A stretch of 64,000 nucleotides of DNA, taken from positions 719 through 64,718 of the forward strand of contig JAAXGN010000008.1 in the NCBI GenBank assembly GCA_012267415.1, read 5' to 3'. Origin of the DNA: Candidatus Poribacteria bacterium (lineage in GTDB: Bacteria; Poribacteria; WGA-4E; WGA-3G). The notes beneath the pieces were generated by a model. The model was not told the DNA's origin, made no database searches, and saw only the letters and a program-made list of their open reading frames with translations. Below, in pieces: positions 3,052-37,170 of the stretch (position 1 is the stretch's first letter; each line of letters starts with the position of its first letter). Position numbers and translations under genes: made by a program.

Positions 3052-4878
3052 TTATACGGATTGAACTTCCGTATATCCCTTGGGCAACGACTTACCACTG
3101 ACGAGTGCTGTCTTCAATGGTCGTATGTGTCTACAACTGCCCCTATATTCAAAACCTGGACAATCGCAAGTTATATCTGCACCGATCACCTCCAAAGTAT
3201 AAAATTTTCCTTTCTGAGATGAACTTTCTACGTGATAGACGGCACGTTGTGGACCAGATAACACCTGTGCTAATATACGTATGGCTTCTTCTGAATATGG
3301 TTTTAGCTGCTTGCGTGTTGCTTCTTCAAGATGTGATGCATTTTCTTCAAGGTATGCATCACCTGCTTTCTGGAGTACGCTTTGAATATCTGATTCTTTC
3401 AGTTTTGAGGTTTCAACAGACAATGCATTCATCATTCTTTTGAGTTCACTGAGTACATCCATCTTAAGGGCTGCCTCACCACCTGGAACCAATATTGATC
3501 CTTCAACGATGGAGTCCATCAACGCTGCCTTCGTTTTCAGCACCGTCTTTACGAAGGAGTCAACCGTGCCACTTGCAATCATATAGGTGACATTCACAGT
3601 CCCCGTTTGACCGATGCGATATGCGCGATCTTCTGCTTGCCAGTGATTTGCAGGCACCCAATCTAAATCGTTGAATACCACCTGCCGTGCAGCAGTGAGA
3701 TTTATACCAACGCCAGCGATGTGCATGTTAGCCACGAAGATTCTGATGTCATCATCGTTTTGAAAGCGATCAACGCGATCCTGTCTCTTATCTGCTGGAA
3801 CTGCTCCAGAAACATATACTGCTCGATCCTTGAAGTGCTTTTGAAAACGTTGCATTGTGTTGAGAAAGGAGGTAAAGATGATTACCTTTTCTCCCTGTTC
3901 CAGAGCATTTTCAACGAATTTGATCGTGTGCCGACATTTGACAAACGCAATTGCACGACGTACTTGTGTTACCCGCCCCATTGCATTTCCTACATCTGTC
4001 AAATCTATAGATTCTTCAAATTCTTCACGAGATTCCGTTGATATTTCAAGGACTTCAGGCAAACCCGCGATGGCTTCTGGAGTCTCAAATTTAGTTAGAA
4101 AATCTTGTAATAAGTGGTTATAGTGCTGGATGGCAAAAGGGTGCAGTTCAACTTCCATCCATGTTCGTACTTTCGGTGGTAGGTCTAATACCTCATCTTT
4201 TGTTCGTCGTAGCATCACACCGTGGAGTTGGACGGTTAACTCCTCAATGTTGCTTGCGCCATCTGCAACTAACCCAAAGTCACCTTGATATGCTTCGCAA
4301 TATCTTTTTGCAAAACTAAGAAAACTTTTACCAAGTGGATGGTCTAATATTTGTAGGAGCGGAAAAAGGTCGCGAGGACGATTCGTCATCGGGGTGCCAG
4401 TGAGTGCATGGACAACCGGTTCATTTTCAATCTCATGAATGAGTTTTGAAGCATTTTGACTGCGTTGGCTTTGGTAGTTTTTGAGAAAATGTGCTTCGTC
4501 AAAAACGACTCCTTTCCAATCATATTCAAGCAGTTTATCCAAATGTTTACCGAGGATTTCGTAGTTAACGATAACCCACTCTTTGAAATCTGTTGAAGGC
4601 AGCGGTTTGGGACCAACAATCGTGGATGTAGCGGTGGGTAAGACGATCTCAATTTCCCGTGCCCAATTACGTTTAATAGATGCAGGACAGACTATAAGAT
4701 AAGGACCTTCCGGTTCTGCTTCAACCATTGCCAAGATAGACTGTCTGGTTTTACCCAAACCCATATCATCGGCGAGGAGGGCACGGCGGCGACCCAAAAG
4801 AAATGCAATGCCTTCCACTTGATGCGGAAATAAACCTTCGGCAATTTCTTCGGCGCGTTTTACACTGGTTTCCTGCAT
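3052..4878 (-). CDS. SNF2-family DNA helicase/translocase with C-terminal SWIM zinc finger
   Basis: Helicase motifs DDMGLGKT (I), FDEAHFLKN (II), LTGTPMTNR (III) and DLDWVPANHWQAEDRAYRIGQ (V/VI). The C-terminal CDCPGFEYRGSCRHI fits the CxCx(n)CxH SWIM pattern. Confidence 0.85.
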   Translation of the reverse strand: MQETSVKRAEEIAEGLFPHQVEGIAFLLGRRRALLADDMGLGKTRQSILAMVEAEPEGPYLIVCPASIKRNWAREIEIVLPTATSTIVGPKPLPSTDFKEWVIVNYEILGKHLDKLLEYDWKGVVFDEAHFLKNYQSQRSQNASKLIHEIENEPVVHALTGTPMTNRPRDLFPLLQILDHPLGKSFLSFAKRYCEAYQGDFGLVADGASNIEELTVQLHGVMLRRTKDEVLDLPPKVRTWMEVELHPFAIQHYNHLLQDFLTKFETPEAIAGLPEVLEISTESREEFEESIDLTDVGNAMGRVTQVRRAIAFVKCRHTIKFVENALEQGEKVIIFTSFLNTMQRFQKHFKDRAVYVSGAVPADKRQDRVDRFQNDDDIRIFVANMHIAGVGINLTAARQVVFNDLDWVPANHWQAEDRAYRIGQTGTVNVTYMIASGTVDSFVKTVLKTKAALMDSIVEGSILVPGGEAALKMDVLSELKRMMNALSVETSKLKESDIQSVLQKAGDAYLEENASHLEEATRKQLKPYSEEAIRILAQVLSGPQRAVYHVESSSQKGKFYTLEVIGADITCDCPGFEYRGSCRHIRPLKTALVSGKSLPKGYTEVQSV

Positions 4879-4917
4879 GCTGTATTCCTTATGGAGGGAA
4901 ATATCTTATCTATCACC

Positions 4918-5883
4918 TTATCTGTCAACGAGCCAAAAATCACCCTGACTGACCGAGCTGAGGTGCTTCATCATCACGGCTCCAGGGAAATTTGGTGCCA
5001 TACCTATACCCATTGCAAAAATGCGACCGTTTCCTGTTGCATGCTTCCCTATTCGCTTTAGGTCTGGCGTGCTGATACTGATTGGGATTCCATCGCTAAA
5101 CAGAACAACAATTGTAGGTGTGGATTTTGATGTATCTGTCAAAGTCGTCAGCATGTCGTGGTCGGTACCCTTAGTATGTATCTGCGATTTTATACTCGCC
5201 AAATACCCTGTTGAACTTTTTACTGTGTCTTCAGTGACTGGAACAAAATCTTTCTGATATTTCACCAATTCGGTACTAAATGCAACAATGTTAAAACTAT
5301 CGTGTGGTGCAAGGAAGGTGAGAGAATCTTGCATTATGTTTATAATCCTGTTGAATTTCCAATCAGAGTAGTTTTGCACGCTGGTGGATAAGTCTACACA
5401 ATAGATAATACGTTGCGGTCCCTCCTGTGCTTCAATGAACTTTACCAAACGGCTCTTTTTTCTTTCTGGCGTTTTCTGCTGTTTCTGTATTGGAATTTCA
5501 ACACCGCGCTGTATGCTGGGGACATCTTTTATTTCTATCTGAGTGGGACCAGGGGCTATTCCTTCTCCTATATTGACCTGTTCAGTGGTATGAAAAGCAG
5601 TTGGTTCTGAAGCAGAAACAACACCACGATGTGTTGCGGGTTGGTTGCTTGTAAGTATCTTCACCTTTGATTGATTCGTAGTTGGTGTGTTCTGCCGTTT
5701 GATTTGTGTTCGTTTAGGGGGTGTGATTCGTTTCTTGGGTGGTTCGACTTTTGTGAAGAAGGCATCCATGCTTTCTTCAGGGTTGGTGGGTGCCACGCCA
5801 AACCAGTAAAAAATTCCAATTATGGCGACAATGACGTGTAATACAATTGAGATGAGTAATGATGTGCTTGATCTTGGACGCAT
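4918..5883 (-). CDS. membrane-anchored vWA-domain protein with TonB-like N-terminal anchor and Pro/Lys-rich linker
   Basis: N-terminal TM segment SLLISIVLHVIVAIIGIFYWF, then the linker KVEPPKKRITPPKRTQIKRQ. The C-terminal domain has a MIDAS-like DLSTS and VVLFSDGIP. Confidence 0.65.
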   Translation of the reverse strand: MRPRSSTSLLISIVLHVIVAIIGIFYWFGVAPTNPEESMDAFFTKVEPPKKRITPPKRTQIKRQNTPTTNQSKVKILTSNQPATHRGVVSASEPTAFHTTEQVNIGEGIAPGPTQIEIKDVPSIQRGVEIPIQKQQKTPERKKSRLVKFIEAQEGPQRIIYCVDLSTSVQNYSDWKFNRIINIMQDSLTFLAPHDSFNIVAFSTELVKYQKDFVPVTEDTVKSSTGYLASIKSQIHTKGTDHDMLTTLTDTSKSTPTIVVLFSDGIPISISTPDLKRIGKHATGNGRIFAMGIGMAPNFPGAVMMKHLSSVSQGDFWLVDR

Positions 5884-5916
5884 TTATTTATACCTTGTGT
5901 GTAAATTTATAGTATG

Positions 5917-6969
5917 TCAAAAATCTACATTTGGAAGTTTGTTGTATCCTCGTTCTGTGAAAAAATCTGTAAAATCTGATGATGTTGTTGGGAATTCTAT
6001 CTCTATTTCATTTGTGAGTTGATTCAATATTTTATCTCCAATTATTTCAGCAGATTTTCCACGTAAGGCTTTTTCATACCAAACCTCTAACTCATCTAAT
6101 GTGATCACACTTTGTACTCTATTTGCACTCCCAAATTGTTTAAGAACAGATACGAGAACATTTTTTTCAGATTCCTTACATACAATTATTATACGATCTG
6201 CAGTAATTTCATTACTTATGTTTTCTATTACTTTAGGTGTTAAAGAGATGTGCTTAATTTGTATAGCTGCACCAAAGTTTGCCCACATATCAAGCCCTCT
6301 ATCAGCTGCGTTGGTGACACCTACTCGAAAAACTTTAGCTGCTTGATAAATTTCAGGTATTTCTTTTGACAAACCCAGAACTTTCTCAGCGAAATCAGAA
6401 AACTCGCTAAGAATCGCATTATTGATGTTATTGATTCGCACTCCGATGTTTACTTCAAGTACTTCTAACAGCGTTGAAAACAAGGCATAAACCACTATTT
6501 CATATATCTTATCAATACTGCGTGAAAGCCCAGGATTTCGCGTAAATTGCTCAACAAAATTACTGAGGACAAAAGATTTTCTACCGGACTTTAAAACATA
6601 AGATAACCCTGCAGACATTTGAGATAGTCTGTTTTTCAGAGCATCATAAATATAAGCTTCAACTACCCCGTTGCTGTTTCTGTTTATTATTCCTAATTGT
6701 ACCAAAACCGCTGGAGGTGTAGCATTAGGTTCAAAAAGATTATCTTGGAATCTTGAGCTTGATGTAGATATATTTCCAACGAACTTCAATGAAATTTCAT
6801 TTCTCCATTTTCTTGAGGGTGTTCGGTAAGTTTCCAAATCGTGTAGATCAATATCTCCTTCTATACGGTCTCTTTGAAGTATTTCTGCTATTTGTATGGG
6901 TTTGTAAAAATGAACCCTTGCCCTATTAATAACGGTATCAAGGTGTTTTTTAGCAGTTTTATTGTCCAT
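5917..6969 (-). CDS. putative type II restriction endonuclease (partner of the adjacent C5-methyltransferase)
   Basis: 350-aa ORF overlapping the stop of the methyltransferase gene by 11 nt. It is visibly AT-richer than the surrounding genes. A possible PD-(D/E)xK-like segment is ADRGLDMWANFGAAIQIKH. I suspect the HaeII/HpaII-type family but could not verify it. Confidence 0.5.
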   Translation of the reverse strand: MDNKTAKKHLDTVINRARVHFYKPIQIAEILQRDRIEGDIDLHDLETYRTPSRKWRNEISLKFVGNISTSSSRFQDNLFEPNATPPAVLVQLGIINRNSNGVVEAYIYDALKNRLSQMSAGLSYVLKSGRKSFVLSNFVEQFTRNPGLSRSIDKIYEIVVYALFSTLLEVLEVNIGVRINNINNAILSEFSDFAEKVLGLSKEIPEIYQAAKVFRVGVTNAADRGLDMWANFGAAIQIKHISLTPKVIENISNEITADRIIIVCKESEKNVLVSVLKQFGSANRVQSVITLDELEVWYEKALRGKSAEIIGDKILNQLTNEIEIEFPTTSSDFTDFFTERGYNKLPNVDF

Positions 6970-7945
6970 TAGACATCACATTACCAATGATATCAAACAA
7001 GGGTAATTGTTCTCCTTGTTTGATTATAGGTTTTTGTAGATTTAATGCTTGCAACATTTTTTCAGCGATGGCATGTATTACCGGAATAGCTACGCTATTT
7101 CCTATCTGTTTTCGGAATTGTGTTAGATTCCCAACAATTTTAAAGTCTTCAGGAAAACCTTGCAAACGTAACATTTCTCTACGAGAAGGTCGCCGTACAC
7201 CGTTAACTAAAAGATAGTTATGAGATGCATTAGCTCTCAACGCACACGAATATGGTAACATTGAAATATTACCTCCTTTGTTTTCATGCCAAATAGATGG
7301 AAAAAACGGTATGCCTTTGCATTTTGCAAAACGCGATTCACGTATACGGGATGATGCGAACAGTGTAGGGTCAACGGCCTCGTCAGATTCAAGTATCTCT
7401 GATAAAGGTTTGTAAACGCTAGGCCCTATCGGAAAATTAAACGCCCTCGGTTCACGAAAACCTATAATAAAAATACGTTCTCTTTTCTGTGGTAATCCGA
7501 ATTCCAGCGCATTCAATACGTTGAAATAGATAGTATAACCAAACCGCAAAAGATTTTCTTGTATAATAGAAAAGGTTCGTCCATTGTCATGGCTGCCCAA
7601 CTGTTTAACGTTTTCAAGAAGAAACGCTTTTGGTTGTTTATGTTTCAAAATTCGAGCGATGTCAAAAAACAACGTGCCGCGTGTGTCTTCAAAACCGTGT
7701 TTATCCCCAATAATGCTGAAAGGTTGGCACGGGAAACCTGCTAATAAAATATCGTGGTCCGGGATAGCAGATTCGTCAATTTTGGTAATGTCTCCAGCAG
7801 GGGTTTCACCAAAATTACGTTTGTAAGTTTGTTGTGCATGTTTATCCCACTCGGAACTAAATACACACGTTCCACCCAATTTTTCAAATGGGATACGGAT
7901 CCCACCGATTCCTGCAAAGAGATCAATAAAACTAAAACTTTTCAT
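6959..7945 (-). CDS. dcm: DNA (cytosine-5)-methyltransferase
   Basis: Canonical C5-MTase motifs FIDLFAGIGG (I), GFPCQPFS (IV), ENVKQL (VI), QKRERIFIIGF (VIII) and GNSVAIPV (X). Size and layout resemble M.HhaI/M.HpaII-type enzymes. Confidence 0.92.
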   Translation of the reverse strand: MKSFSFIDLFAGIGGIRIPFEKLGGTCVFSSEWDKHAQQTYKRNFGETPAGDITKIDESAIPDHDILLAGFPCQPFSIIGDKHGFEDTRGTLFFDIARILKHKQPKAFLLENVKQLGSHDNGRTFSIIQENLLRFGYTIYFNVLNALEFGLPQKRERIFIIGFREPRAFNFPIGPSVYKPLSEILESDEAVDPTLFASSRIRESRFAKCKGIPFFPSIWHENKGGNISMLPYSCALRANASHNYLLVNGVRRPSRREMLRLQGFPEDFKIVGNLTQFRKQIGNSVAIPVIHAIAEKMLQALNLQKPIIKQGEQLPLFDIIGNVMSNGQ

Positions 7946-23002: not shown

Positions 23003-24022
23003 ATGACTTGGTTCCGTTTTGGTAATCCGGATTTTCTGATTTATATTTTATTCGGGTTGCCTATTTTTTTATTTCTGTTACGATTCGGTTGGCATAGAAA
23101 ACAGAAAGCGATACTGCTTTACCAAAGCAGTATGAGTGCTTCTGACATAAAACGACAAAAGGTTCAGGTCGTATTCTTGATCTTGATATTCCTTGCTATA
23201 TTTCTTGCCCTTACATTTCCGCAGTGGGGAAACAAACCTGAAACTGTTGCTGAAAAATTGGATGTGATGCTGGCATTGGACACTTCTACAAGTATGCTTG
23301 CTACCGATGGTGATTCTGTGCGTAGGCTTACCCGTGCAAAAAATGTGATTTTTGAACTGCTGGATCAACTACAGGATGACCGTGTCGGACTCCTCTATTT
23401 TGCTGAAGCAGGTGTTGTCGTATGTCCACTGACAGACGATGTTAGCACTATCAGAGAGTTTTTGTCTGCGTTGAAACCCGAATCACTGGTGCATCGTGGA
23501 ACTCGTATCGGCAATGCAATAGAGATCGCGAAGGAACGATTCATTCGTGAAGGTAGCGAGTCTGTTCCTACCATGACAAATGCAAGTGGACATAAAGTGC
23601 TGATTCTATTTACTGATGGTGAGGACCACGGTGAGGATGTATCTGAGTCAGTGGAAGCAGCGAAAATGGAGGGAATATCTATCTACTGTGTCGGTTTTGG
23701 GGATTCTGGCAAGTCTGTACCTATTCCGCTGCCTGATGAAAGCATGGGATACAAACGCGATACAAGAGGTCAACTCGTGCTAACAACCTTGGATGAAGAG
23801 GGGTTGTTTGAATTGGCTAAGTCGGGTGATGGCAACTACTATCATGCAGATATAGGGGTTTCTCAGTTGATGTCAGATTTAGCAAGGCTTGAGAAGCAGA
23901 GATATAAGATTCCTGCAGATGGTGAATTGAGGGATAAATTTCAATGGTTTATTTTTATTGCAATAGTATTCTTGGTGGCGGAATTACTTATGCAGCAGTG
24001 GAGAATGCATGCTGATAATTGA
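23003..24022 (+). CDS. BatA/BatB-like vWA-domain membrane protein
   Basis: Two N-terminal TM segments, MIDAS LDTSTSM, LFTDGEDHGED and a C-terminal TM segment. Confidence 0.75.
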   Translation: MTWFRFGNPDFLIYILFGLPIFLFLLRFGWHRKQKAILLYQSSMSASDIKRQKVQVVFLILIFLAIFLALTFPQWGNKPETVAEKLDVMLALDTSTSMLATDGDSVRRLTRAKNVIFELLDQLQDDRVGLLYFAEAGVVVCPLTDDVSTIREFLSALKPESLVHRGTRIGNAIEIAKERFIREGSESVPTMTNASGHKVLILFTDGEDHGEDVSESVEAAKMEGISIYCVGFGDSGKSVPIPLPDESMGYKRDTRGQLVLTTLDEEGLFELAKSGDGNYYHADIGVSQLMSDLARLEKQRYKIPADGELRDKFQWFIFIAIVFLVAELLMQQWRMHADN

Positions 24023-24045: not shown

Positions 24046-25056
24046 TTACGTCTTTTTATACATCAATCCCGCAGGACGGAAACGCATTAAGAGAACTAAG
24101 ATTACGCCAAAGAGGAGCATACGGGATCCGGCGATTTCAGGATACTTTGATAAAGCCTCACGGAGTATTTCACCTAACGAACCAAGAATGACAGCACCTA
24201 ACATTGCCCCCCTGATGCTTCCCATGCCACCCAAGACGACCATGCAGAGTATGAAGATGGATTCCCAGAAATCAAAAGATTGTGCGCTAAAATTGACTTG
24301 AAATTGTGCTAAGAATGCTCCGCCAATGCCGCCTATTGCAGCACTCACTGCAAATGCCAAGGATTTGTAACGACCGACGTTTATTCCCATACTCTCTGCA
24401 GCCTGTTCATCTTCGCGAATTGCAACCCAAGCTCTGCCTACTCTTGAGTTTTGCAACCTATAGGTAACGAAAATGACTAAAACCAATAGGATTATTATGT
24501 GGTAGTAGTTGTGCCAGATTTGGTCGAAAGAGAAATTGGTGAATGGTATTGTCGGTGCTGGAACGCCGCGCACTTGTCCGTTAGGAGCACCACCTGTCAA
24601 CCACAGTTCATTTTTGACGATACGGAAGAATAGCTCTGCAAAACCGAAAGTAACGATGGCAAAGTAGTCTCCGGTTAACCGCAAAGTAGGTATTCCTCTT
24701 AATAATCCCCATGCAGTTGCGTGTACCACTGCCAGGGGTAAGGCAATCCAATAATGAACACCATGAAGTGACATAAGTATGCCTACCGTATACCCGCCGA
24801 TGAGATAAAACGCAACATATCCTAAATCAAGCAGACCTGTAAAACCGCAGACAATGTTTAGTCCAATAGCAAGTAGCATATAGAGACATGCGCGGACGAG
24901 AATCCGAAGAATATAATCGGCACCGGGCCATCCAAAACTGATCCTGTATTGATCTAATAATAGACTACTAATATCATCAATGCCGAACAGGAACCAGGGT
25001 AGTGCACAGATGGCAATACAGAGAATGATGTTCCTTGGTGTAAGTTTATCCTTCAT
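24046..25056 (-). CDS. livM: branched-chain amino acid ABC transporter permease
   Basis: 336-aa polytopic protein adjacent to a livH-like gene and a Leu/Ile/Val-type binding protein. Confidence 0.85.
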   Translation of the reverse strand: MKDKLTPRNIILCIAICALPWFLFGIDDISSLLLDQYRISFGWPGADYILRILVRACLYMLLAIGLNIVCGFTGLLDLGYVAFYLIGGYTVGILMSLHGVHYWIALPLAVVHATAWGLLRGIPTLRLTGDYFAIVTFGFAELFFRIVKNELWLTGGAPNGQVRGVPAPTIPFTNFSFDQIWHNYYHIIILLVLVIFVTYRLQNSRVGRAWVAIREDEQAAESMGINVGRYKSLAFAVSAAIGGIGGAFLAQFQVNFSAQSFDFWESIFILCMVVLGGMGSIRGAMLGAVILGSLGEILREALSKYPEIAGSRMLLFGVILVLLMRFRPAGLMYKKT

Positions 25057-25083
25057 ACATTAACCTTTATATTAGATTTTTAC

Positions 25084-25974
25084 CTATGCACGCTTGCTTG
25101 TTGCCTTTCCAAATAGACCGGTTGGACGAATCAGTATTACGAGTATCATGATGATATACGCAAATGCGATTCTATAACCTGAGTGAAGATCAGCACCAAA
25201 TGCCTCTGCGATACCGATGAGCAACCCCCCGACTATTGCACCTGTGACGCTGCCGATACCCCCCAGCACTGCTGCTGCGAACGCTGCAACTCCCTTATAG
25301 TAACCCATGGTGGGTGTGACATTTTCACTCAGTCCAACCATCACACCAGCAACTGCTCCTAATGCAGACCCGACTGCAAAAGTTGCTAAAATCACTCTAT
25401 TTGCATTAATACCCATGAGATTGGCTGCGACAGCATTCTGTGCACATGCTCGCATAGCCTTTCCTATTCTTGTATAGTATATCAATAGGTTGAGAATAAT
25501 CATCAACACGACTGCAATCAGTAGAATAAAAACATCCCGATAAGGCAGCGTACCACCCCCTGGTAGAGGAATTACGTTGTCAAAGAGTGATGGTAACGAA
25601 TCTGGTGGATAAACTTGAGGTTCTGCTGTCCAAAATATCCGTGCCAGGTTCTGAAGTGCAATTGAAATTCCAATGGCAGTTATCAAAGCAGACAAACGGG
25701 GTGCAGTGCGCAGGGGACGATAGGCTACATAATCAATCAACATGCCTAACAACGCACATAGCAACATCGCTAACGGTAATGCAAACCAAAACGGGATGTG
25801 GAATACGGTGATAAGGATCAGTCCGAAGTAGGCACCAAACATGTAAATTTCACCGTGTGCAAAGTTAATCAGTTGAATGATGCCGTAAACCATGGTGTAA
25901 CCAACGGCTATAAGCGCGTAGATTCCACCTTGAACCAAACCGTTGATTAACTGTTCAAATATCTGTGCCCACAT
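25084..25974 (-). CDS. livH: branched-chain amino acid ABC transporter permease
   Basis: INFAHGEIYMFGAYF and a 296-aa polytopic layout. Confidence 0.87.
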   Translation of the reverse strand: MWAQIFEQLINGLVQGGIYALIAVGYTMVYGIIQLINFAHGEIYMFGAYFGLILITVFHIPFWFALPLAMLLCALLGMLIDYVAYRPLRTAPRLSALITAIGISIALQNLARIFWTAEPQVYPPDSLPSLFDNVIPLPGGGTLPYRDVFILLIAVVLMIILNLLIYYTRIGKAMRACAQNAVAANLMGINANRVILATFAVGSALGAVAGVMVGLSENVTPTMGYYKGVAAFAAAVLGGIGSVTGAIVGGLLIGIAEAFGADLHSGYRIAFAYIIMILVILIRPTGLFGKATSKRA

Positions 25975-26052
25975 ATACTTGACTTTCTATGTATCGGGAA
26001 TAGAGAATTAGAATAATGTTCAATTCAAAAAACGCGTCATTCTGTATTACGT

Positions 26053-27219
26053 TTATTTCAGTTCAAGCAGTTGTTTCTCTGCGCGGACAAACTTCCCGTC
26101 CCTAACAACTTTAACATAAGCGGGTTTATCAACTGTGTCACCATTGTGATCAAAATATGTGAGACCCGTTACACCCTTATATCCTTCTTCAGGTGTATCA
26201 ATTGCTGCAAGATGCTCGCGAATGGCACTACGATTCTCTGCGAGTTCTGCTTCAGGATTGTAAGTTGCTGCTAAGGCTTCAGCGATCATTCCCACAGCGT
26301 CGTAAGTTAATGCTGCCCATGTATCTGGGGGAACCTTGTGATGTTTTTCAAAATTGGCAGCCATTTCCTTCGCTTTTGGATCGTCTTCACCAAACAGGAA
26401 AGGTGTCGTAATGTATGTGCCTTCAGCAGCGCGTGATCCCGCAGTTGTCAAAAAAACTTCATTGTCAATCCCATCAGCACCGAAGAACTGTGAAGTAACG
26501 CCTGCCTCGCGGGCTTGTTTGACAATTAAACCGGCTTGTGCATAAAGACCTGAGATGAAAATGGCATCCGGTTTCTTTCCCTTTATACTGGTGAGTTGTG
26601 CTTTGAAGTTTGTTGTATCTTCTTCATAAGCCTCTGATGCCACGAGCGTGAGGCCAGTTTTTTCTACTTCAGCGACAAATGCGTCTCTGAGTCCACGACC
26701 ATAGTCATCGTTATGAAAAAAGACCGCGACAGTCTCAATCCCAGTCAATTCATTATCTATGTATTGCGCGATAAACTTGCCTTGAAAATCATCACGGTAT
26801 AAGTTGCGAAATGTCCATTTGCTACCTACGCAGACATCAACATTTGTTGAACCTGGTGAAAACTCAACAATTCCAGCTCTATCATAGATCTCCTGACCTG
26901 ATAATGTACATTTGCTGTTAAAATGACCAACAACTGCTAATGTTTCTTTGTCGTTAGCGATTCTTTCAGCAACAAGCGTTGCTTCAGATTCATCACCAGC
27001 ATCGTCTCTAAAAACGATTGCAAGCATTGTACCGTTTATTCCGCCCGCGTCGTTTATCTCTTTCAGTTTGAGTTCAGCTCCCTTTTTTATCATTTCCCCA
27101 AAGGCTGCAGAACCTCCTGTAATGGGAGCAGCAACTGCTATTTTTAGTTTATCTGAAGGTTGACAACCAGAAAAGGTAATTAATCCTAATATCAACACTC
27201 CTACATACCACATTCTCAT
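26053..27219 (-). CDS. ABC transporter substrate-binding lipoprotein (Leu/Ile/Val-binding family)
   Basis: Lipobox LITFSGC and KIAVAAPITGGSAAFGEMIKKGAELKLKEINDAGGINGT. I chose the ATG at 27219 (GGAG about 9 nt upstream); the ORF track extends to 27255. Confidence 0.85.
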   Translation of the reverse strand: MRMWYVGVLILGLITFSGCQPSDKLKIAVAAPITGGSAAFGEMIKKGAELKLKEINDAGGINGTMLAIVFRDDAGDESEATLVAERIANDKETLAVVGHFNSKCTLSGQEIYDRAGIVEFSPGSTNVDVCVGSKWTFRNLYRDDFQGKFIAQYIDNELTGIETVAVFFHNDDYGRGLRDAFVAEVEKTGLTLVASEAYEEDTTNFKAQLTSIKGKKPDAIFISGLYAQAGLIVKQAREAGVTSQFFGADGIDNEVFLTTAGSRAAEGTYITTPFLFGEDDPKAKEMAANFEKHHKVPPDTWAALTYDAVGMIAEALAATYNPEAELAENRSAIREHLAAIDTPEEGYKGVTGLTYFDHNGDTVDKPAYVKVVRDGKFVRAEKQLLELK

Positions 27220-27317
27220 TAATCTACTCTCCTTCAATAAGTTTGTCTGTAGCACATTCTGTTAGATTGTGCGTTGGTAATACAAGTTAGGTCACTGCAC
27301 CCATATTATAACGGCAA

Positions 27318-28343: not shown

Positions 28344-29759
28344 ATGCAACTATATGAAGCTGTCAGTCCTTTAGATTTTAGATACTATGGCGGCGATGAA
28401 ACTTTTATGAAACGACTGCTCCCCTACGTCTCTGAAGCAGGATATGTAACCTGTCAAGCGAAGGTAGAGGCAGCGTTAGTTCGGACACTTGCGAAATATG
28501 GTGTCTGCACAACCGAAATTGCAGATGAAGTCGAACAAGCGGTGGAACACGTAACAGCAGAAGAGGTATACGAAGAACAGAGGCGTATCAGACACAACAT
28601 ACGTTCACTCGTAAATGTCATCCGCAGAAAAATCAGTCCTGAAGCACGTCCCTACGTCCACCTGTTTGCAACGTCAGCAGACATCTTGGATACGGCTACA
28701 GCGATAAGATTCAAAACACTCATTGCAGATGTGATTGTTCCGGATATGATTGCATTAGAAAAGCAATTGATCGCATTAGCACGAGAACATGCGGATACAC
28801 CCCAAATAGGAAGAACACACGGACAACACGCAGAACCGATTACTTATGGTTACGCGTTGGCACTCTATGTCAGTAGACTCGGTACCCGGATTGAAAAAGT
28901 ACACGAAGCAGGACAAAACTTACGCGGGCAATTTTCGGGTGCGGTTGGCGCATTCAACGGATTGGCATTGATACATAAAAGTCCTGAAAAAATAGAGGCT
29001 GATTTTCTTGAATTACTCAACCTGAAGCCATCGGACACGCATACGTCAACACAGTGTGTAGAACCAGAGTTCATCTCAGATTTAGCATATCAAATCACAG
29101 CTGCCTATACAATACTTGCAAACTTCGCTGATGATATGCGACATCTCTATCGCACCGAAATTGCAGAGGTCGGAAGGAAATATAACCCACAACTTGTTGG
29201 CTCGTCCACGATGCCGCACAAAGTTAATCCAGAAGCTTATGAGAACATCAAGAGTCTATGGAAAGCTTTTGTGCCACGCATGCAGACAGTATTCCTGGAT
29301 AGCATCTTAGAGCATCAACGCGACCTAACGAATTCCGCATCCAGTCGCTTTTTGACGGAGTTGGTTACGGCGTTCGACTATGCTATCTACAGACTTCGCA
29401 AGGCATTGGGCGAGATGGATGTAAAGTCAGAAAATATGATGCGGAACCTTGAAATGAGTGCGGAGGATACAATCGCAGAACCTATCTATCTATTGATGGC
29501 GTATCACGGATTTCCAGATGCTTACGATCATACACGTAAACTGATTGCACAAGTTCACCAAACAGGCAAGAGCCTGTCAACACTACTCTGGGAGGATGAG
29601 ACATTTCAACCGTTCCTTGATAAGTTAACGGAACCGCAACGCGAAGCATTACGTTCACCAACGAACTATATCGGTGCTTCGGTGCAAAGAACGCATGCAA
29701 CATGTGATGAATGGGAAAAACGGGTAGACAACTTGATGGACAGTCTTGAGACTACATAG
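28344..29759 (+). CDS. purB: adenylosuccinate lyase (fumarate-lyase superfamily)
   Basis: SPLDFRY at the N-terminus and the lyase signature GSSTMPHKVNP; 471 aa. Confidence 0.85.
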   Translation: MQLYEAVSPLDFRYYGGDETFMKRLLPYVSEAGYVTCQAKVEAALVRTLAKYGVCTTEIADEVEQAVEHVTAEEVYEEQRRIRHNIRSLVNVIRRKISPEARPYVHLFATSADILDTATAIRFKTLIADVIVPDMIALEKQLIALAREHADTPQIGRTHGQHAEPITYGYALALYVSRLGTRIEKVHEAGQNLRGQFSGAVGAFNGLALIHKSPEKIEADFLELLNLKPSDTHTSTQCVEPEFISDLAYQITAAYTILANFADDMRHLYRTEIAEVGRKYNPQLVGSSTMPHKVNPEAYENIKSLWKAFVPRMQTVFLDSILEHQRDLTNSASSRFLTELVTAFDYAIYRLRKALGEMDVKSENMMRNLEMSAEDTIAEPIYLLMAYHGFPDAYDHTRKLIAQVHQTGKSLSTLLWEDETFQPFLDKLTEPQREALRSPTNYIGASVQRTHATCDEWEKRVDNLMDSLETT

Positions 29760-31374: not shown

Positions 31375-31500
31375 GGATGCGCCAAGAAGATCGCGTCAAT
31401 AACGACATTTAGTTTTATTTTCTGGAATTTTAAGGTTTTTTATGGTAAAATGTACATAAGATGAAAAATAATGCAGAGAATCTCAAAAAAGGATGATCAC

Positions 31501-33414
31501 ATGAAAAGAAATACAGGTTTATTTTCTTCCGACACATGTAATTGGGTAACGCGTAAGAAACTGCTGCATCTGTTGACAATCAACGTTTCTTGTTTGGTGC
31601 TTCTGTTTCTTGTGTTTTCGGCACAAGCACAACAACGTTTCGCAGATGAAATTGGACAAGTTGCAGTTCGTGAAGTTACATCAACATCCCCCTTAGTTGT
31701 TCCCTATATTACGTGGGGTGGCGAATCCGCTCTATTCCACGCAAACGGTGGATTGACAACGCAGACTGGCACAATCATGGCAAAACAGGGATTGAACCTA
31801 AAATTAGTGCCTGGAGATAACTTTCAGCAGCAAGTACGGGACTATCTTAGCGGTAAATCACCGATTTTACGGGGAACGTTTAGAATGATCGCACAAGCAA
31901 GTGAGGTTGTCGGACGCGATCCACGCACAAAACCCGTTGTATTTGGACAACTCACGTGGTCTGCTGGTGACCATTTCGTGGGAAGAGCGAATATACGTAA
32001 GATTTCTGATCTAAGTGGAAAGAAGATCGCTATCCAAAAGGGTGGACCTCATGTCGGTATGTTATACGATATGTTAAAGACCGCACGACTCTCAAAAACC
32101 AATGTTCAAATCGTGTGGGTTGACGAACTTACAGGTGCAAACGGTCCCGCAGAAAAATTCCGAAGTGATACATCCATCGCAGGATGTTTTGTCATCACAC
32201 CTGATATGATCGGATTGACAGGAGGGCCTGATAATACCGGAACAGGAGCTGAAGGAACAGTCAAAGGGGCACATGTTGTCGTTAGTACTGCAACACTCTC
32301 ACGTTCAATCGCCGATGTTTATGCATGTCGTAAGGATTTCTATGACCTCTATAAACCGCTAATTGAGAAATTTTTTGCAGGGTATCTAAAGGGTGCTGAG
32401 GAGGTCGTAGATCTTAAAAAGACATATCAGAGAAGTGGATCAACGCAATACACGAGATTGCTCACCATGATGCAGAATATCTACGGCAAAGACGTTCTGC
32501 CGACGCTTGAGGAGGATGCTCACGGCTTAATAGCAGATTGCACCTTCGTAGGACAACCCGGTAATGTCGCATTCTTCAACGATCCGAAGAATACCATCAC
32601 AGGTTTTGAAGGATTTAATAAGGCTGGCTTGGATATGGCGGTTAACTGGGGATTTGCAAGACAACGATACGCACTCCTGCCATCTGATTTAAACTTCAAT
32701 TCAAATGAATTTAAGAGTATCCTTGCTACAACCGTCGCTGCACCGACACAGCTAAAACAGACCCGTTTCAAAAAGGAGACTGTCCGCGCAGAGATTGAAT
32801 CGTTTAATGAGGACGCTGTTCTTGACGAAAAAACACTCATATCATTTACTATTCAATTTGATGCCAATGTAGAAACATTTAGTGGTGCAAAATATCAAGA
32901 AGAATTTGACAGAGTCCTTGAACTCGCCGCAAAGTATGGAAACGCGGCAATAGCAATAAAAGGTCACAGCGATCCTACGCGAACGCTTCGAGTTTTAGTA
33001 CAAGCAGGAAAAGCTAAAGGGGTTCTCAAACAGACAGGCACAACAGGAAACTATAAATACTATATGCAAGGTAAACCGCTGAGTCTTGAAAACACTGCAG
33101 AATTAATTCGCCTTATAGAACAGAAAACGTTTGATGATGGAACCGATGTTGACAGTCCTTATCAAGTGATGCGGGCAGCACTCAAGCTTTCTGAACAGCG
33201 TGGTGAAGCGGTGAAGCAGGCACTCATCGACTATGCTCGGACTAAGAACGCACGAATTGATACGGACCAGATTGTCCCTGTTGGGGTTGGAATTAAGGAA
33301 CCTATTATCCCAAAACCTTCAAGTCTTGAAGAAGCAGCGGTAAACCGTCGTGTAGAATTTGCACTCATTAAGGTCTCTGCTGAAGCAGTTGCTGCATCCG
33401 ACTTTGACTTTTAG
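31501..33414 (+). CDS. secreted fusion of an NMT1/SsuA-like substrate-binding domain and an OmpA-like domain
   Basis: Signal peptide ending FSAQA. SBP-like segment KIAIQKGGPHVGMLYDMLK..VQIVWVD. The C-terminal OmpA-like region runs IAIKGHSDPT, then an insert of about 60 aa, then LKLSEQRGEAVKQAL...AVNRRVEFALIKV. ATG at 31501 (AAGGA 7 nt upstream); the alternative start is 31471. Confidence 0.65.
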   Translation: MKRNTGLFSSDTCNWVTRKKLLHLLTINVSCLVLLFLVFSAQAQQRFADEIGQVAVREVTSTSPLVVPYITWGGESALFHANGGLTTQTGTIMAKQGLNLKLVPGDNFQQQVRDYLSGKSPILRGTFRMIAQASEVVGRDPRTKPVVFGQLTWSAGDHFVGRANIRKISDLSGKKIAIQKGGPHVGMLYDMLKTARLSKTNVQIVWVDELTGANGPAEKFRSDTSIAGCFVITPDMIGLTGGPDNTGTGAEGTVKGAHVVVSTATLSRSIADVYACRKDFYDLYKPLIEKFFAGYLKGAEEVVDLKKTYQRSGSTQYTRLLTMMQNIYGKDVLPTLEEDAHGLIADCTFVGQPGNVAFFNDPKNTITGFEGFNKAGLDMAVNWGFARQRYALLPSDLNFNSNEFKSILATTVAAPTQLKQTRFKKETVRAEIESFNEDAVLDEKTLISFTIQFDANVETFSGAKYQEEFDRVLELAAKYGNAAIAIKGHSDPTRTLRVLVQAGKAKGVLKQTGTTGNYKYYMQGKPLSLENTAELIRLIEQKTFDDGTDVDSPYQVMRAALKLSEQRGEAVKQALIDYARTKNARIDTDQIVPVGVGIKEPIIPKPSSLEEAAVNRRVEFALIKVSAEAVAASDFDF

Positions 33415-33426
33415 TCCTTTTTAAAT

Positions 33427-33528
33427 AGGAGAACTTAAAAGTAGTAGGCACTCTCCGAGTGCCGTCTATTAGGAGAACTTAAAAGTAGTAGGCACTCTCC
33501 GAGTGCCGTCTAAATAGTTAGGAGAACC
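33427..33528. repeat. 2.2 tandem copies of a 44-nt unit, each with an SD-like AGGAG and a GTAG hairpin
   Basis: The unit is aggagaacttaaaaGTAGtaggcactctccgagtgccgtcta(tt). Copies start at 33427 and 33471, with a partial third copy aggagaacc at 33520. That third copy serves as the RBS for the GTG start at 33530. Confidence 0.85.
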
Positions 33529-33529
33529 T

Positions 33530-34471
33530 GTGAAACTTTCAATAGTGACATCTATTTTACTTCTAAGTGCCTTCCTAATTGTTAACGTTTGTATAGCAGA
33601 AAACGGCGTTCATACGGATAATATCATCGTAATCCTTGATGCTTCCGGTTCTATGAAGGACAAATTCCGAGGAGACGAGACCAAGTCTAAGATGGACGCG
33701 GCAAAGGAAGCACTCCAAGAAGTGTTGGCAAAAATTCCTGATGGTACCAATATAGGTGTGCTTGTTTTTTCTGGACGCAATGTGCCGAATGAATGGGTAT
33801 ATCCACTGGGACCGAAGGACACCAATAAGTTAATTGAAGCAATCAATCGTCCCGAACCAGAAGGCGGTACACCCCTCGGGAGATATATACGTATCGGGGC
33901 AAACCGACTGCTGGAACAACGCGAGAAACAGTATAACTACGGAAACTATCGGTTGTTAATTGTAACGGATGGTGAAGCACAAGATGCTGAAAAAGTCACC
34001 AAATACACCCCTGAGATTTTGAACAGGCAGCTTCGTGTTGATGTCATCGGTGTTGATATGAGCACAGATCACCAGTTGGCACAGGAAGCGGATAGTTATC
34101 GAAAGGCAGATAATCCGGGCGAACTCGTTGCTGCTGTCTCACAGATACTCGCGGAAACAGGTGGAACTGCTACGGATGTTGGGGGTGAAGAAGCTTTTGA
34201 CGATATTGCACCCCTTACAACTGAAATCGCTTTAGACCTAATTCAACGGATTACAACGCCAGCAAGTAATGAAGCAATAGCAATTGAAACAACTGCTACA
34301 GTGCCGAAAAAACCGAATACACCGACACAACCGCAGCAAACAACGCAACAACCTGACGGTAGAGGCGGGGTTTCCCCGCCCGTCCGAGGCGGTAACACAC
34401 CATGGATACTTATCGGACTTGTTGTCTTAGTTGCAGGTTACATCATTTTTAGACGAATGGGAAGACAGTAG
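33530..34471 (+). CDS. secreted vWA-domain protein with C-terminal TM anchor
   Basis: Signal peptide, MIDAS residues DASGSM, GGTPLG and VTDGEAQD, a Pro/Thr/Gln-rich linker, and the C-terminal TM segment WILIGLVVLVAGYIIF. The start is GTG with AGGAG 5 nt upstream. Confidence 0.8.
   Translation: MKLSIVTSILLLSAFLIVNVCIAENGVHTDNIIVILDASGSMKDKFRGDETKSKMDAAKEALQEVLAKIPDGTNIGVLVFSGRNVPNEWVYPLGPKDTNKLIEAINRPEPEGGTPLGRYIRIGANRLLEQREKQYNYGNYRLLIVTDGEAQDAEKVTKYTPEILNRQLRVDVIGVDMSTDHQLAQEADSYRKADNPGELVAAVSQILAETGGTATDVGGEEAFDDIAPLTTEIALDLIQRITTPASNEAIAIETTATVPKKPNTPTQPQQTTQQPDGRGGVSPPVRGGNTPWILIGLVVLVAGYIIFRRMGRQ
34359..34384. repeat. GTAG-footed REP-like hairpin inside the vWA coding sequence
   Basis: GTAGaggcggggtttccccgcccgtc is read in frame as GRGGVSPPV, within the linker between the vWA domain and the TM anchor. 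Confidence 0.7.
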
Positions 34472-34472
34472 T

Positions 34473-36080
34473 ATGGAAGCAAAAACAAAAAGTAGAGTCA
34501 TCATGGTAGCGAGCTGGCTGATTATTATCGGGGTAATCGGTCTTGCCTATAAGTTTCTCGTTGAACCACGACTTAGTGGGAGACGTGATAAACTCGTTCA
34601 AGATACCAGCACGCAGAATTATGACCACGAAATAAAAATCGCACACGACTCTTTTCCGGGGTACGCAATTTTACGATCCGTTGCTGTGAAAAACCTGCTT
34701 GATCGCCAAGCCATTAAACTCACCTTTATTGATGACAAAGCCGACTATGTCAAGAGAGTCCGGGACCTCAAAAATGGTAAAGTGCAGATGGCGGTTTTTA
34801 CAATAGATGCATATCTTAAAGCGGGTAATGTTGTTGGTGATTATCCCGGTTCAATTGTTTTAGTCATAGACGAATCTAAAGGTGCTGATGCAATCGTAGC
34901 ACATGAACGCGGTGTCGCTGCCATACCAAATCTGAGTAATCCTAACGCAAAGATAATACTCACACCGGACTCACCAAGTGAAACACTTGCGCGGATCATG
35001 ATTAACACCATGAGTCTACCGAGTCTACCATCAAATTGGCAATCGGATGCAAATGGGGCAGAAGATGTCTATAAAAAACTAAAATCTGCCGACCCAGACA
35101 ACCCGTACGCCTATGTCCTTTGGGAACCCTATGTAACAAAAGCACTCGCAATTGATGGTGTCCAATTGTTGTTGGATAGCTCAAAACTCAAAGGATATAT
35201 CGTAGATGTATTAGTGGTTCAACGGGAATTTCTAAATTCTCAACGCGAACTTGTTACCCATGTCGTGCAAGCCTATCTCCGGGCAAACTACGATTACACA
35301 AACCAACCGGATGGATTACTGTCATTAATTCAGGAAGATGCCAAGCAGTATGGTGATAAGTTGAATCAGAATGAAGCGAGTAAACTCGTCAAAGGTATTG
35401 AATGGCGTAACACCGTTGAGAATTATGCACATTTCGGAATTATCACCGGTTCAGCAGCAAAAGAAACCGAGAAACTTGACACAATGATTGAAAAAATAAT
35501 GCAAGTTCTCGTCAAAACAAAATCTCTACCATCCGATCCGTTGGCAGGTAAATACGGACAGTTATACTTTGAAGGAATTCTACGTGCATTAAATACAGAT
35601 GATTTCCATCCCGGCGTGCTCAGTAGCAGTGCCACTGAAGGTCTGGAAGGGATTCTTGTTGATACATCAGATGTGATAGAGGAGAAAGTTCGGGAAGAGA
35701 AAACACTAAATCCACTATCTGATGATAACTGGAACACACTTGCGCCAGTCGCAGCAATGAAAATTGAACCGATCCAATTTGGAAGAGGGAATGCGCGTAT
35801 CCTTCCCGGTAGTAAGCGCGCGCTTACCGATATTGCATCTAAACTCAAGTCATTTCCACAATACTATCTGCGAGTCGTTGGACATACACGCGCGGAAGGA
35901 GACGCTACAGCGAATAAGATCCTTGCAACGCAACGCGCAGATGCAGCGGCGAAGGCTCTCAGGGAACTCGGAATCGCAAATCAGAGAATACGCGCGATTG
36001 CTGGCACGCGGAACGCATTTAAGAAGCAAGGCGGCGAAGCACAAAGCGTGACTTTTGAATTGTTAGGAAAACCTTATTAG
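34473..36080 (+). CDS. membrane-anchored fusion of an NMT1/SsuA-like substrate-binding domain and an OmpA-like domain
   Basis: The ATG lies 1 nt after the vWA stop codon. N-terminal TM segment VIMVASWLIIIGVIGLAY and an SBP-like core. The C-terminal YYLRVVGHTRAEGDATANKILATQRADAAAKALRELGI is OmpA/MotB-like. Confidence 0.7.
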   Translation: MEAKTKSRVIMVASWLIIIGVIGLAYKFLVEPRLSGRRDKLVQDTSTQNYDHEIKIAHDSFPGYAILRSVAVKNLLDRQAIKLTFIDDKADYVKRVRDLKNGKVQMAVFTIDAYLKAGNVVGDYPGSIVLVIDESKGADAIVAHERGVAAIPNLSNPNAKIILTPDSPSETLARIMINTMSLPSLPSNWQSDANGAEDVYKKLKSADPDNPYAYVLWEPYVTKALAIDGVQLLLDSSKLKGYIVDVLVVQREFLNSQRELVTHVVQAYLRANYDYTNQPDGLLSLIQEDAKQYGDKLNQNEASKLVKGIEWRNTVENYAHFGIITGSAAKETEKLDTMIEKIMQVLVKTKSLPSDPLAGKYGQLYFEGILRALNTDDFHPGVLSSSATEGLEGILVDTSDVIEEKVREEKTLNPLSDDNWNTLAPVAAMKIEPIQFGRGNARILPGSKRALTDIASKLKSFPQYYLRVVGHTRAEGDATANKILATQRADAAAKALRELGIANQRIRAIAGTRNAFKKQGGEAQSVTFELLGKPY

Positions 36081-36179
36081 ATTCACACAACTGTTTACTT
36101 AGGTAATATATAGCGAACAGACAATGTATAGTAACACTCAGAATTATGTATACACTTATCCACTAACAAATACCCGCTT

Positions 36180-36204
36180 GTAGTAGGGCAATTCATTGCC
36201 CGTC
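36180..36204. repeat. GTAG-footed REP-like hairpin inside a MITE-like frame
   Basis: GTAGtagggcaattcattgcccgtc. It is flanked by atatagcgaac (about 36108) and, inverted, cactatagtg (about 36245), which resemble the TATAGyGAA ends of the other elements. Confidence 0.6.
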
Positions 36205-36276
36205 GTGCCAAGAAGTGCACATTTATTCTTAGGTTTCACTATAGTGTAGCAGAAACATCATTGGGAGGATAGAAGC

Positions 36277-37170
36277 ATGTCAATTAACAGAAACAGAAAA
36301 CAGAGAAAAATATCCAACCGTCCTTTATCACGTCGTGTATTCATAAAAGGTTCTGTAGGACTCGCAACAGCTGCTACAGCTGGCGGTGGTTTAATTCGGT
36401 CAGCGAGCGCGCAATCAGATTTTGGTGAGTACATACCGTACGATTCAACAAAGGATATTCACTGGGACTATAACCGGAACACAGGAAGACGTGAAATAAT
36501 TGAACACCACCATCCCGGTATGGAGCCAACAGGCGAAAAATTTACTTTCGTCCGCCTCAAATATGCCGGAGGAGATTGGTATACCAATCTCGTCAGAACA
36601 GCTCTCTGGCAGTCAGACCTAAAATTTACGCAACTGCTTGCTGCAAATACCGCAATAAATGTTGATTTACGACAACATCCACAATATGTTGAAATTGACG
36701 ATCCTTGGTTGTTTTCCTATCCATTCCTCTACATGACTGGACACGGTAGAGTTAGGGGAGGTATGCGGATTACGGATCAGCAGGTCGGAAAGTTAAGGGA
36801 GTATTTTGATCGCGGCGGATTCATGCACGTTGAAGATTGCGATTTCCGTTGGAATTATTTCTATCCGCAACTTGAACGATTGATGAAGCGGATATTTCCA
36901 GATAAGAAATTCGAACGACTTGATATCACTCACCCAATTTACAAAACCCTCTACATACATGACGAATATATGGGGGGAGACAAACTGATACCAGGTTATG
37001 AATTTGACCAAGCTATTTTGGATAAGGACGACAAAGTTATGGTCTACTTCTGTCCAAACGACCTCAACTGTGCATGGGAAGGAAGAACATGCAGTCCCGG
37101 TGGTGAAGAGCAACGTATTTGGGCATTTGAGCAAGGGATGAATGTTGTCGCTTATGCACTTACACGATAA
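36277..37170 (+). CDS. Tat-signal DUF4159-like protein
   Basis: Twin-arginine signal SRRVFIKGSVGLATAATAGG. FTFVRLKYAGGDWY, PFLYMTGHG and GGFMHVEDC match my memory of DUF4159. Confidence 0.6.
   Translation: MSINRNRKQRKISNRPLSRRVFIKGSVGLATAATAGGGLIRSASAQSDFGEYIPYDSTKDIHWDYNRNTGRREIIEHHHPGMEPTGEKFTFVRLKYAGGDWYTNLVRTALWQSDLKFTQLLAANTAINVDLRQHPQYVEIDDPWLFSYPFLYMTGHGRVRGGMRITDQQVGKLREYFDRGGFMHVEDCDFRWNYFYPQLERLMKRIFPDKKFERLDITHPIYKTLYIHDEYMGGDKLIPGYEFDQAILDKDDKVMVYFCPNDLNCAWEGRTCSPGGEEQRIWAFEQGMNVVAYALTR

Follow-up and report, generated by a model that had tools for sequence, protein, structure and literature searches.

The 64-kb stretch of DNA analysed here (the window), located on contig C43 of a Candidatus Poribacteria bacterium that lives as a sponge symbiont, carries at C43:31.4-36.1 kb a trio of genes, A, B and C. 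They encode a secreted solute-binding protein (SBP) fused to an OmpA-like domain, a secreted vWA protein with a C-terminal transmembrane (TM) segment, and a second, membrane-anchored SBP-OmpA fusion. Our analysis suggests that A-B-C constitute the periplasmic, wall-facing arm of an envelope system whose cytoplasmic arm comprises a PspA-like protein, a coiled-coil protein with two TM segments and a tandem AAA+ ATPase. We assign to this statement, which is made at the level of the system, a probability of about 0.7; the topology, folds, conservation and co-inheritance on which it is based are evident from the sequences and models, while the specific contacts between the components, which we infer, are considerably more doubtful.

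PspA and Vipp1 are homologues of ESCRT-III, and it is a question of general importance what directs and recycles their assembly outside the classical Psp regulon, and whether or not a Vps4-like motor takes part. In the system described here, a PspA-like protein comes with an AAA+ ATPase of its own and with a periplasmic arm facing the wall. Moreover, the genome represents a natural experiment: an ATP-binding cassette (ABC) importer encoded with the trio in relatives is gone and the genes are distributed over two loci, yet the trio, the coiled-coil protein and a 595-residue protein (unk595) are inherited or lost as a set.

Co-inheritance and gene order

Four proteins, namely the ATPase (aaa602), C, the two-TM coiled-coil protein (psp280) and unk595, were searched for in the same 151 Poribacteria genomes. 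The ATPase was found in 110 genomes, C in 73 (70 orthologues and three distant copies), psp280 in 68, all of which are C-positive, and unk595 in 66. psp280 is thereby present in 68 of the 70 carriers of a C orthologue versus none of the 78 non-carriers (Fisher p = 1.7e-37), and the two C-positive genomes devoid of it are fragmented assemblies. Within the Poribacteria family f1, unk595 occurs in 65/65 C-positive versus 0/35 C-negative genomes. A is likewise missing from all 18 tested genomes that encode the ATPase without C. The trio is never encountered in Poribacteria lacking the AAA+ ATPase and almost never in those lacking the TM coiled-coil gene, even when these are located at separate loci, and genomes without the trio keep PspA-AAA+ only (L094, L095). 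This is exemplified by a complete genome from the same genus (G040), in which an adenylosuccinate-lyase-like (ASL-like) gene (28344-29759 in the window), NAGPA and a DUF4159 gene are contiguous with no A-B-C between them, and the other locus holds PspA genes and the AAA+ gene only. At least four genera contain both carriers and non-carriers of the trio; with its occurrence in about half of the Poribacteria, the trio represents a variable envelope trait of sponge symbionts. By their distribution, A-B-C belong with the TM coiled-coil protein and unk595 to a single accessory set on a PspA-AAA+ core, and this set was lost together, repeatedly, even where its genes reside at two unlinked loci. Such joint loss from unlinked loci is the strongest evidence for a functional link.

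Gene order provides a second line of evidence. The search for homologues of C yielded 735 matches, with 45-50% identity over the full length in Verrucomicrobiota and Planctomycetota. An earlier note on this DNA, made from the letters of the window, had made its reading depend on conservation of the order A-B-C elsewhere, and this order is in fact kept in ∼80 Poribacteria loci, in Verrucomicrobiota and in Vibrio megaplasmids; A and B were found upstream of C in all non-Poribacteria loci examined where the flank allows it to be seen. A chance neighbourhood was rejected on account of this conservation. A nine-gene order (A, B, C, two-TM coiled-coil protein, PspA-like protein, NitT/TauT SBP, permease, ABC ATPase, tandem AAA+ ATPase) was seen in Verrucomicrobiota and unnamed contigs (L001, L003, L102, L104) as well as in basal Poribacteria (L070-L074), with typical sizes of ∼255 residues for the coiled-coil protein, ∼275 for the PspA-like protein and ∼605 for the AAA ATPase. 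The free SBP of this operon is TIGR03427-like (176 bits) and its permease is TauC/SaoP-like. In other basal Poribacteria (L077-L081), a ∼580-residue protein replaces the three importer genes in an otherwise identical order. Of 301 Verrucomicrobiota genomes sampled, five carry C; B lies upstream in all five, the TM coiled-coil gene is detectable downstream in four, and PspA is found as well in three of those four, the flanks being short.

Additional genes were noted in two of these operons. The order of the system is intact in a Verrucomicrobiota contig in which a gene for a PemK-type toxin, an HNH gene and small open reading frames lie between the PspA-like gene and the importer genes (L001:12980-15512). 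In a basal Poribacteria operon, a 296-residue protein with a signal peptide is encoded between the free SBP and the permease (L072:15062-15952); its C-terminal sequence, ...GFSFTF, is typical of outer-membrane β-barrels, and a 52%-identical copy is located at C55:24660-25385 in the window's own genome.

In the latter genome the system is split. tblastn against this genome located psp280, psp194, psp289, unk595 and aaa602 at C157:53.6-60.5 kb, apart from the trio on C43, whereas Verrucomicrobiota and basal Poribacteria hold the system in a single neighbourhood; the system genes on C157 are 47-54% identical to those of the Verrucomicrobiota operon. unk595 contains the invariant motif DKxLIHDxWGHQWQExLLDFE and has no match in Pfam, NCBIfam or the PDB. 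An orthologue of the free SBP or of the permease is absent from this 97.6%-complete genome, as judged by tblastn with Verrucomicrobiota and Poribacteria queries, and the search for a cognate importer returned only generic ABC ATPases at ∼33% identity. It thus appears that unk595 replaced an ancestral ABC importer in this lineage. The psp280-aaa602 block is adjoined by an IS605 OrfB/TnpB-type gene (OrfB_IS605 and Cas12f1-like TNB; L006:14706-15818, on C157, minus strand), possibly left behind by the rearrangement through which the system was divided.

Proteins of the trio locus and of the C157 locus

The four co-directional open reading frames A, B, C and D span 31471-37170 (Table 1). For A, B and C, open reading frames, Pfam matches, and signal and TM predictions agree with the positions and domains given in the earlier note, as does the gap of one nucleotide between B and C: the TAG stop of B is followed by one base and then by the ATG of C. 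An overlap of 4 nt takes the place of this gap in Verrucomicrobiota loci. Judged from the sequences, A-B-C are a co-conserved unit that is probably co-translated. The tandem units of the A-B spacer (33427-33514), each consisting of AGGAG and a GGCACTC-GGA-GAGTGCC hairpin, belong to a repetitive extragenic palindrome (REP)-like family of this genome and are not conserved in other phyla.

Table 1. Positions of the features discussed (window numbering, except for unk595)
Feature	Position	Strand	Remarks
Gene A (SBP and split OmpA-like domain, secreted)	31471..33414	+	647 aa; Pfam NMT1, OmpA matched in two halves
A-B intergenic spacer	33415..33529	+	two tandem ∼44-nt units, then real ribosome-binding site
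Gene B (secreted vWA protein, C-terminal TM)	33530..34471	+	313 aa; VWA and VWA_2 above cut-offs
Gene C (TM, TauA/SsuA-fold SBP, OmpA-like domain)	34473..36080	+	535 aa from ATG
Gene D (Tat-exported DUF4159 protein)	36277..37170	+	297 aa; DUF4159 128 bits, SRRVFIK motif for twin-arginine translocation (Tat)
unk595	C157:55613-57397 (= L006:9611-11398; minus strand of C157)		595-aa cytoplasmic protein at the position of the importer genes

Protein A, the biological start of which is probably the second Met (31501), has a Sec-type signal peptide ending in AQA. Its NMT1 match scores 24.3 bits (cut-off 20.5), and 38.5 bits are reached by a Verrucomicrobiota orthologue. The OmpA-like domain is aligned in two pieces (residues 457-508 with positions 12-62 of Omp38, and residues 571-631 with positions 63-117 of OprF), which implies the insert of ∼60 residues within the domain that the earlier note had proposed; the OmpA profile score is only 19 bits (PF00691 cut-off 27.2) because the domain is split. 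The motifs GHSD, LSEQRG and NRRVEF are retained, with the insert sitting between the Asp and the Arg. Among 89 related loci from two phyla, 88 encode an A protein whose C-terminus is DFDF, directly before the stop codon, and the remaining one has DFDY.

Protein B matches VWA with 50.9 bits and VWA_2 with 54.2 bits. Its metal ion-dependent adhesion site (MIDAS) is complete (DASGSM, GGTPLG, VTDGEAQD) and its motifs are conserved across phyla, all three being present in 76 of 92 related sequences in a simple pattern search. TM segments are predicted at residues 5-23 (N-terminal, signal peptide) and 289-307; the latter is connected with the vWA domain by a Pro/Thr/Gln-rich linker and followed by a basic tail, RRMGRQ. 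Both the complete MIDAS and the C-terminal anchor had been recognized in the earlier note.

Protein C has a single N-terminal TM segment and an OmpA domain with 48.1 bits (cut-off 27.2). The AlphaFold2 model, built on 97 homologues, has a mean predicted local distance difference test (pLDDT) score of 88.7, and its top Foldseek match in the PDB is E. coli TauA (6ssy; E 4e-14, target TM-score 0.74), followed by SsuA, ThiY, Thi5/NMT1 and CmpA/NrtA. As far as a model can tell, reading the central domain of C as an SBP is sound, and the proposal that the SBP-like regions have periplasmic binding-protein folds is borne out by the NMT1 match for A and the TauA/SsuA fold for C. The SBP domain of C exhibits weak similarity to the free NitT/TauT SBP of related operons, and its invariant loop motifs (DSFxGY, AVFTID, DExxGxDA, SPSE, WEP and GYIVDV) suggest a conserved predicted site. 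In canonical OmpA-like domains, the Asp...Arg pair (GxTD ... LSxxRA) binds diaminopimelate, as seen in the structures of A. baumannii OmpA and Pal. Protein C departs from this canonical site: the HMMER alignment places its GHTR opposite the GYTD of YiaD and ArfA, so that Arg takes the place of the peptidoglycan-binding Asp (R473, without exception in 97 homologues), and AQSVTF is found where NRRVE would be expected.

Turning to the C157 locus, psp280 consists of two N-terminal TM segments and ∼180 residues of helices and has no Pfam match; its AlphaFold2 model is of low confidence (pLDDT 61), and none of its Foldseek matches was significant, CdvB2 being listed at E 0.58. For psp289 (L006:11884-12753), PspA_IM30 is the top Pfam match over nearly the full length (E 5e-6), and five of eight members of the psp289 family match PspA_IM30 (best E 6.5e-7). 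hhalign detected no relation between the PspA-like and the TM coiled-coil families, comparison of the profiles of both with the PDB gave nothing specific, and the small PspA-like profile found no PspA or Vipp1. The 602-residue aaa602 matches PF00004 at residues 352-472 and contains one Walker A (GPIGSGKT, 354) and one Walker B (LIFVDE, 407) motif, both in the C-terminal half; it qualifies as a tandem AAA+ protein with an inactive first domain. Its best PDB matches are Cdc48, VAT and p97, with CdvC/Vps4 being weaker, and it belongs to the classical AAA clade.

The other genes of the window are not part of the system. That a Tat-exported DUF4159 protein follows the trio, as the earlier note had observed, is correct; the link with BatA-type vWA proteins which it brought up is not supported. 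In the clade of the window the DUF4159 gene follows C, in another clade it precedes A; adjacency is found only within family f1 and neither in basal Poribacteria nor in other phyla, and the gene stays beside NAGPA in genomes without the trio. The DUF4159 protein is a lineage-specific neighbour and not a member of the conserved unit, and a DUF4159/Bat link was rejected on these grounds and for want of an adjacent MoxR or DUF58 gene. The two further vWA open reading frames listed in the earlier note are present (4918-5883, 23003-24022); they are unrelated and lie among restriction and metabolic genes. The former encodes a VWA_3 protein and belongs to a minus-strand region (3052-7945) with genes for a HaeII-type restriction endonuclease, a C-5 cytosine methylase and a SNF2-family helicase (3052-4878), which may be a composite defence locus unrelated to the trio. 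Two LivH/LivM-type ABC permease genes (BPD_transp_2; 24046-25974) and a 400-residue open reading frame occupy 24046-27255 of the minus strand, 4-7 kb upstream of the trio. Hence, the statement that there is no ABC permease nearby requires modification: these permeases belong to a family unrelated to the SBP domains of A and C, and a NitT/TauT-type permease or ATPase is not found nearby.

Proposed mechanism and alternative explanations

If the trio is the periplasmic arm of a PspA-AAA+ system, the following sequence of events can be envisaged, the individual contacts of which are tentative. C would be anchored in the inner membrane and A free in the periplasm, with both assumed to reach the peptidoglycan via their OmpA-like domains. 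B, tethered to the inner membrane by its long linker, would bind an acidic ligand with its MIDAS, and the best candidate for this ligand is the invariant C-terminal DFDF of A; in this way two links between inner membrane and wall would be formed. The SBP clefts might sense a small solute of the NitT/TauT type or an altered geometry of the envelope, and the TM helices of B and C might pass on their state to the two-TM coiled-coil protein, which would dock or nucleate a PspA-like polymer at the inner face of the membrane. The AAA+ ATPase would then remodel or recycle this polymer. The PspA-like protein would accordingly be a putative bacterial ESCRT-III-type component, with the assignment to PspA drawn from a match below the cut-off. 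In the lineage studied here, unk595 would stand in the importer's place and the trio would act as a sensor or tether rather than deliver a substrate for uptake; since the importer appears to have been replaced by unk595, uptake through a cognate importer could not be the role of the trio.

Several observations weigh against this assignment. The PspA_IM30 match of psp289 (26.7 bits) is below the Pfam gathering score of 33.9, and the Snf7 label which a published description of a related operon class attaches to the TM coiled-coil protein (see below) was not reproduced with Pfam, AlphaFold2 or Foldseek. The OmpA-like domains of A, with its 60-residue insert, and of C, with its Asp to Arg exchange, are atypical, and binding of A or C to the wall is an assumption because both domains depart from the canonical site. 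A Poribacteria contig (L073) carries a C orthologue without A or B, and the trio on Vibrio plasmids pairs with TelA and no AAA+ ATPase. Finally, an importer of matching family is located in the same operon in most other lineages, and a transport-linked role is possible.

Such a role would be most direct if the trio provided wall-tethered accessory binding proteins for a NitT/TauT-type ABC importer, as proposed by Ravi et al. (PMC11237479): close to the wall, A and C would catch a solute, anionic or zwitterionic, and pass it to the dedicated SBP and permease, with PspA, TelA and AAA+ proteins only protecting the membrane during transport. We consider this unlikely. It is consistent with NitT/TauT SBP, permease and ATPase sharing the operon in Verrucomicrobiota, basal Poribacteria and Vibrio plasmids, and with the TauA/SsuA fold of the SBP domain of C and its weak similarity to the free SBP. 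However, in all 65 trio-carrying f1 genomes the importer's position is taken by the 595-residue cytoplasmic protein, orthologues of the SBP and the permease did not turn up in this genome or the examined loci, and the distribution of the trio among Poribacteria follows that of the TM coiled-coil protein and not that of the importer. Moreover, a free SBP already belongs to the importer, and this explanation leaves the vWA protein without a role. The earlier note had argued that the SBP domains do not serve a transporter, and had regarded an ABC partner encoded with the homologues in most genomes as the mark of an ordinary uptake system. Its argument holds for this genome, which has no cognate importer, but not for those relatives (Verrucomicrobiota, basal Poribacteria and Vibrio plasmids) in whose operons a NitT/TauT importer with its own SBP is encoded. 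The importer in relatives notwithstanding, the system as a whole is clearly not an ordinary uptake system, and sensing or tethering fits better than uptake here because the genome lacks a cognate transporter.

The suggestion of a ligand-responsive tethering or sensing complex, put forward in the earlier note, is retained to this extent; what does not hold is that such a complex would stand alone, given that probable cytoplasmic partners are encoded on C157. A stand-alone periplasmic complex of A, B, C and the DUF4159 protein, with Bat-type vWA proteins as kin and without PspA and AAA+, would explain why no PspA or AAA+ gene lies beside the trio in this genome and why DUF4159 is adjacent in f1, and we nonetheless regard it as improbable: DUF4159 is not adjacent outside f1 and remains when the trio is lost, a MoxR, DUF58 or BatA-type gene is not adjacent, and the phyletic data, in which the Poribacteria trio never occurs without AAA+ and almost never without the TM coiled-coil protein, have already weakened this explanation. 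Still more remote is the idea of an ion-driven envelope motor to which the trio would belong, with C as a stator anchor of the MotB/ExbD type. It was prompted by the MotB-like layout of C, with an N-terminal TM segment and a C-terminal OmpA-like domain, and by the name 'flagellar motor protein MotB' of one homologue, and was rejected: a channel-type partner gene (MotA/ExbB/TolQ-type) is absent from every locus, the TM segment of C, VASWLIIIGVIGLAYKFLV, has no acidic residue (no Asp or Glu), and a 350-residue SBP domain separates the TM segment from the OmpA-like part.

Comparison with known systems

When compared with canonical Psp (PspA/PspBC/PspF), Vipp1/IM30 and ESCRT-III/Vps4, the system shares the pairing of a putative PspA-family protein with a classical-clade AAA ATPase, which resembles that of ESCRT-III with Vps4, as well as the presumed site of action at the inner face of the cytoplasmic membrane. 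It differs in that PspB, PspC and PspF are absent, in that the ATPase is a Cdc48-like tandem protein without an MIT domain, and in having a wall-facing arm for which those systems have no counterpart. With the TauA/SsuA/NrtA/CmpA binding proteins the SBP domain of C shares its fold, and the NrtA-like regulatory domains of NrtC/CmpC (PDB 9uai, 9uak and 8wm7, among the matches of C) are a precedent for this fold acting as a sensor and not in delivery. Unlike the TauA/SsuA-type proteins, the SBP of C has a TM anchor and an OmpA-like domain in the same polypeptide, and the genome encodes no cognate permease and ATPase for the SBP domains of A and C; the operons that do encode a permease also carry a separate free SBP. 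Bat (aerotolerance) systems differ from the trio in their adjacent MoxR and DUF58 genes and in the vWA protein, since in B a signal peptide and a C-terminal TM segment take the place of the N-terminal double TM.

The closest relative is an operon class predicted by Ravi et al. (2024, mSystems; PMC11237479, section 18, Table S3) from comparative genomics alone, which combines PspA with a 'membrane-anchored divergent Snf7' (SIG+TM+Snf7) and an inactive-AAA/classical-AAA protein, and which in longer operons adds an ABC ATPase, a permease and a SIG+PBPB+OmpA protein (e.g., OGG56892.1 from Candidatus Handelsmanbacteria). The system described here has in common with this class the PspA-like protein, the TM coiled-coil protein, a tandem AAA+ protein with only the second domain active, a protein combining a signal or TM segment with PBPB and OmpA parts (both C and A) and, in relatives but not in this genome, the NitT/TauT importer with ABC ATPase and permease. 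It differs by a second secreted SBP-OmpA protein (A, with its DFDF tail) and a membrane-anchored vWA protein, the term 'vWA' having no occurrence in the text and supplement of PMC11237479, and by its gene order, with two loci and the 595-residue protein in place of the importer in the present genome. As judged from gene content and sequence, the A-vWA-C form is an elaborated variant of this computationally known operon class. A simpler type, matching the published Handelsmanbacteria layout, exists in Poribacteria themselves: in family f4 (L096, G053 C264:92000-111000), genes for a PspA-like protein, a C-like protein, a free SBP, a permease and an ATPase are followed, after a gap, by the AAA+ gene, with C-like and AAA+ proteins each being 28% identical to those of the trio type, and with neither A nor vWA. 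In the literature, we found no experimental study of this system and nothing on PspA of Poribacteria.

On plasmids, tblastn detected homologues of C only on Vibrio megaplasmids (30% identity, 91-96% coverage). On pIFO15642 (V. penaeicida, L105) and pSEA2 (V. alfacsensis, L106), the order is ABC ATPase, A-like protein, vWA protein, C-like protein, a 258-residue two-TM coiled-coil protein, TelA, 'urea ABC SBP' and permease; the A-like protein is annotated as 'nitrate ABC SBP', the C-like protein as 'phosphate ABC SBP/OmpA', TelA as 'toxic anion resistance protein', and the 258-residue protein as hypothetical. The module sits in the backbone of these large plasmids, beside PRTRC genes. It shares with the trio the A-vWA-C order, with A 32% and C 30% identical over nearly the full length, the two-TM coiled-coil protein encoded directly thereafter, and NitT/TauT SBP and permease. 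It differs by having TelA where PspA stands, a vWA protein that is a lipoprotein without C-terminal TM, an A-like protein without the DFDF tail, and GHTS as the OmpA-like site of C; moreover, no AAA+ gene is annotated within 9 kb on either side of the C homologue. As the order with TelA implies, PspA is not the only helical stress protein of the cytoplasm with which the trio and the membrane coiled-coil protein are combined. It is thus conceivable, though we put this forward only as a tentative proposal, that A, vWA, C and the two-TM coiled-coil protein represent a portable trans-envelope adaptor which reports the state of periplasm and wall to interchangeable remodelling effectors, which on Vibrio plasmids would be TelA and in Poribacteria and Verrucomicrobiota PspA together with a dedicated AAA+ ATPase; in these two phyla, a bacterial polymer of the ESCRT-III type would come under outside-in control, and the MIDAS would bind the DFDF tail of A. 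Contact between the A tail and the MIDAS, coupling between TM segments and a solute ligand are testable predictions of the mechanism outlined above, and the presence of a related module on plasmids of culturable Vibrio makes the experiments feasible.

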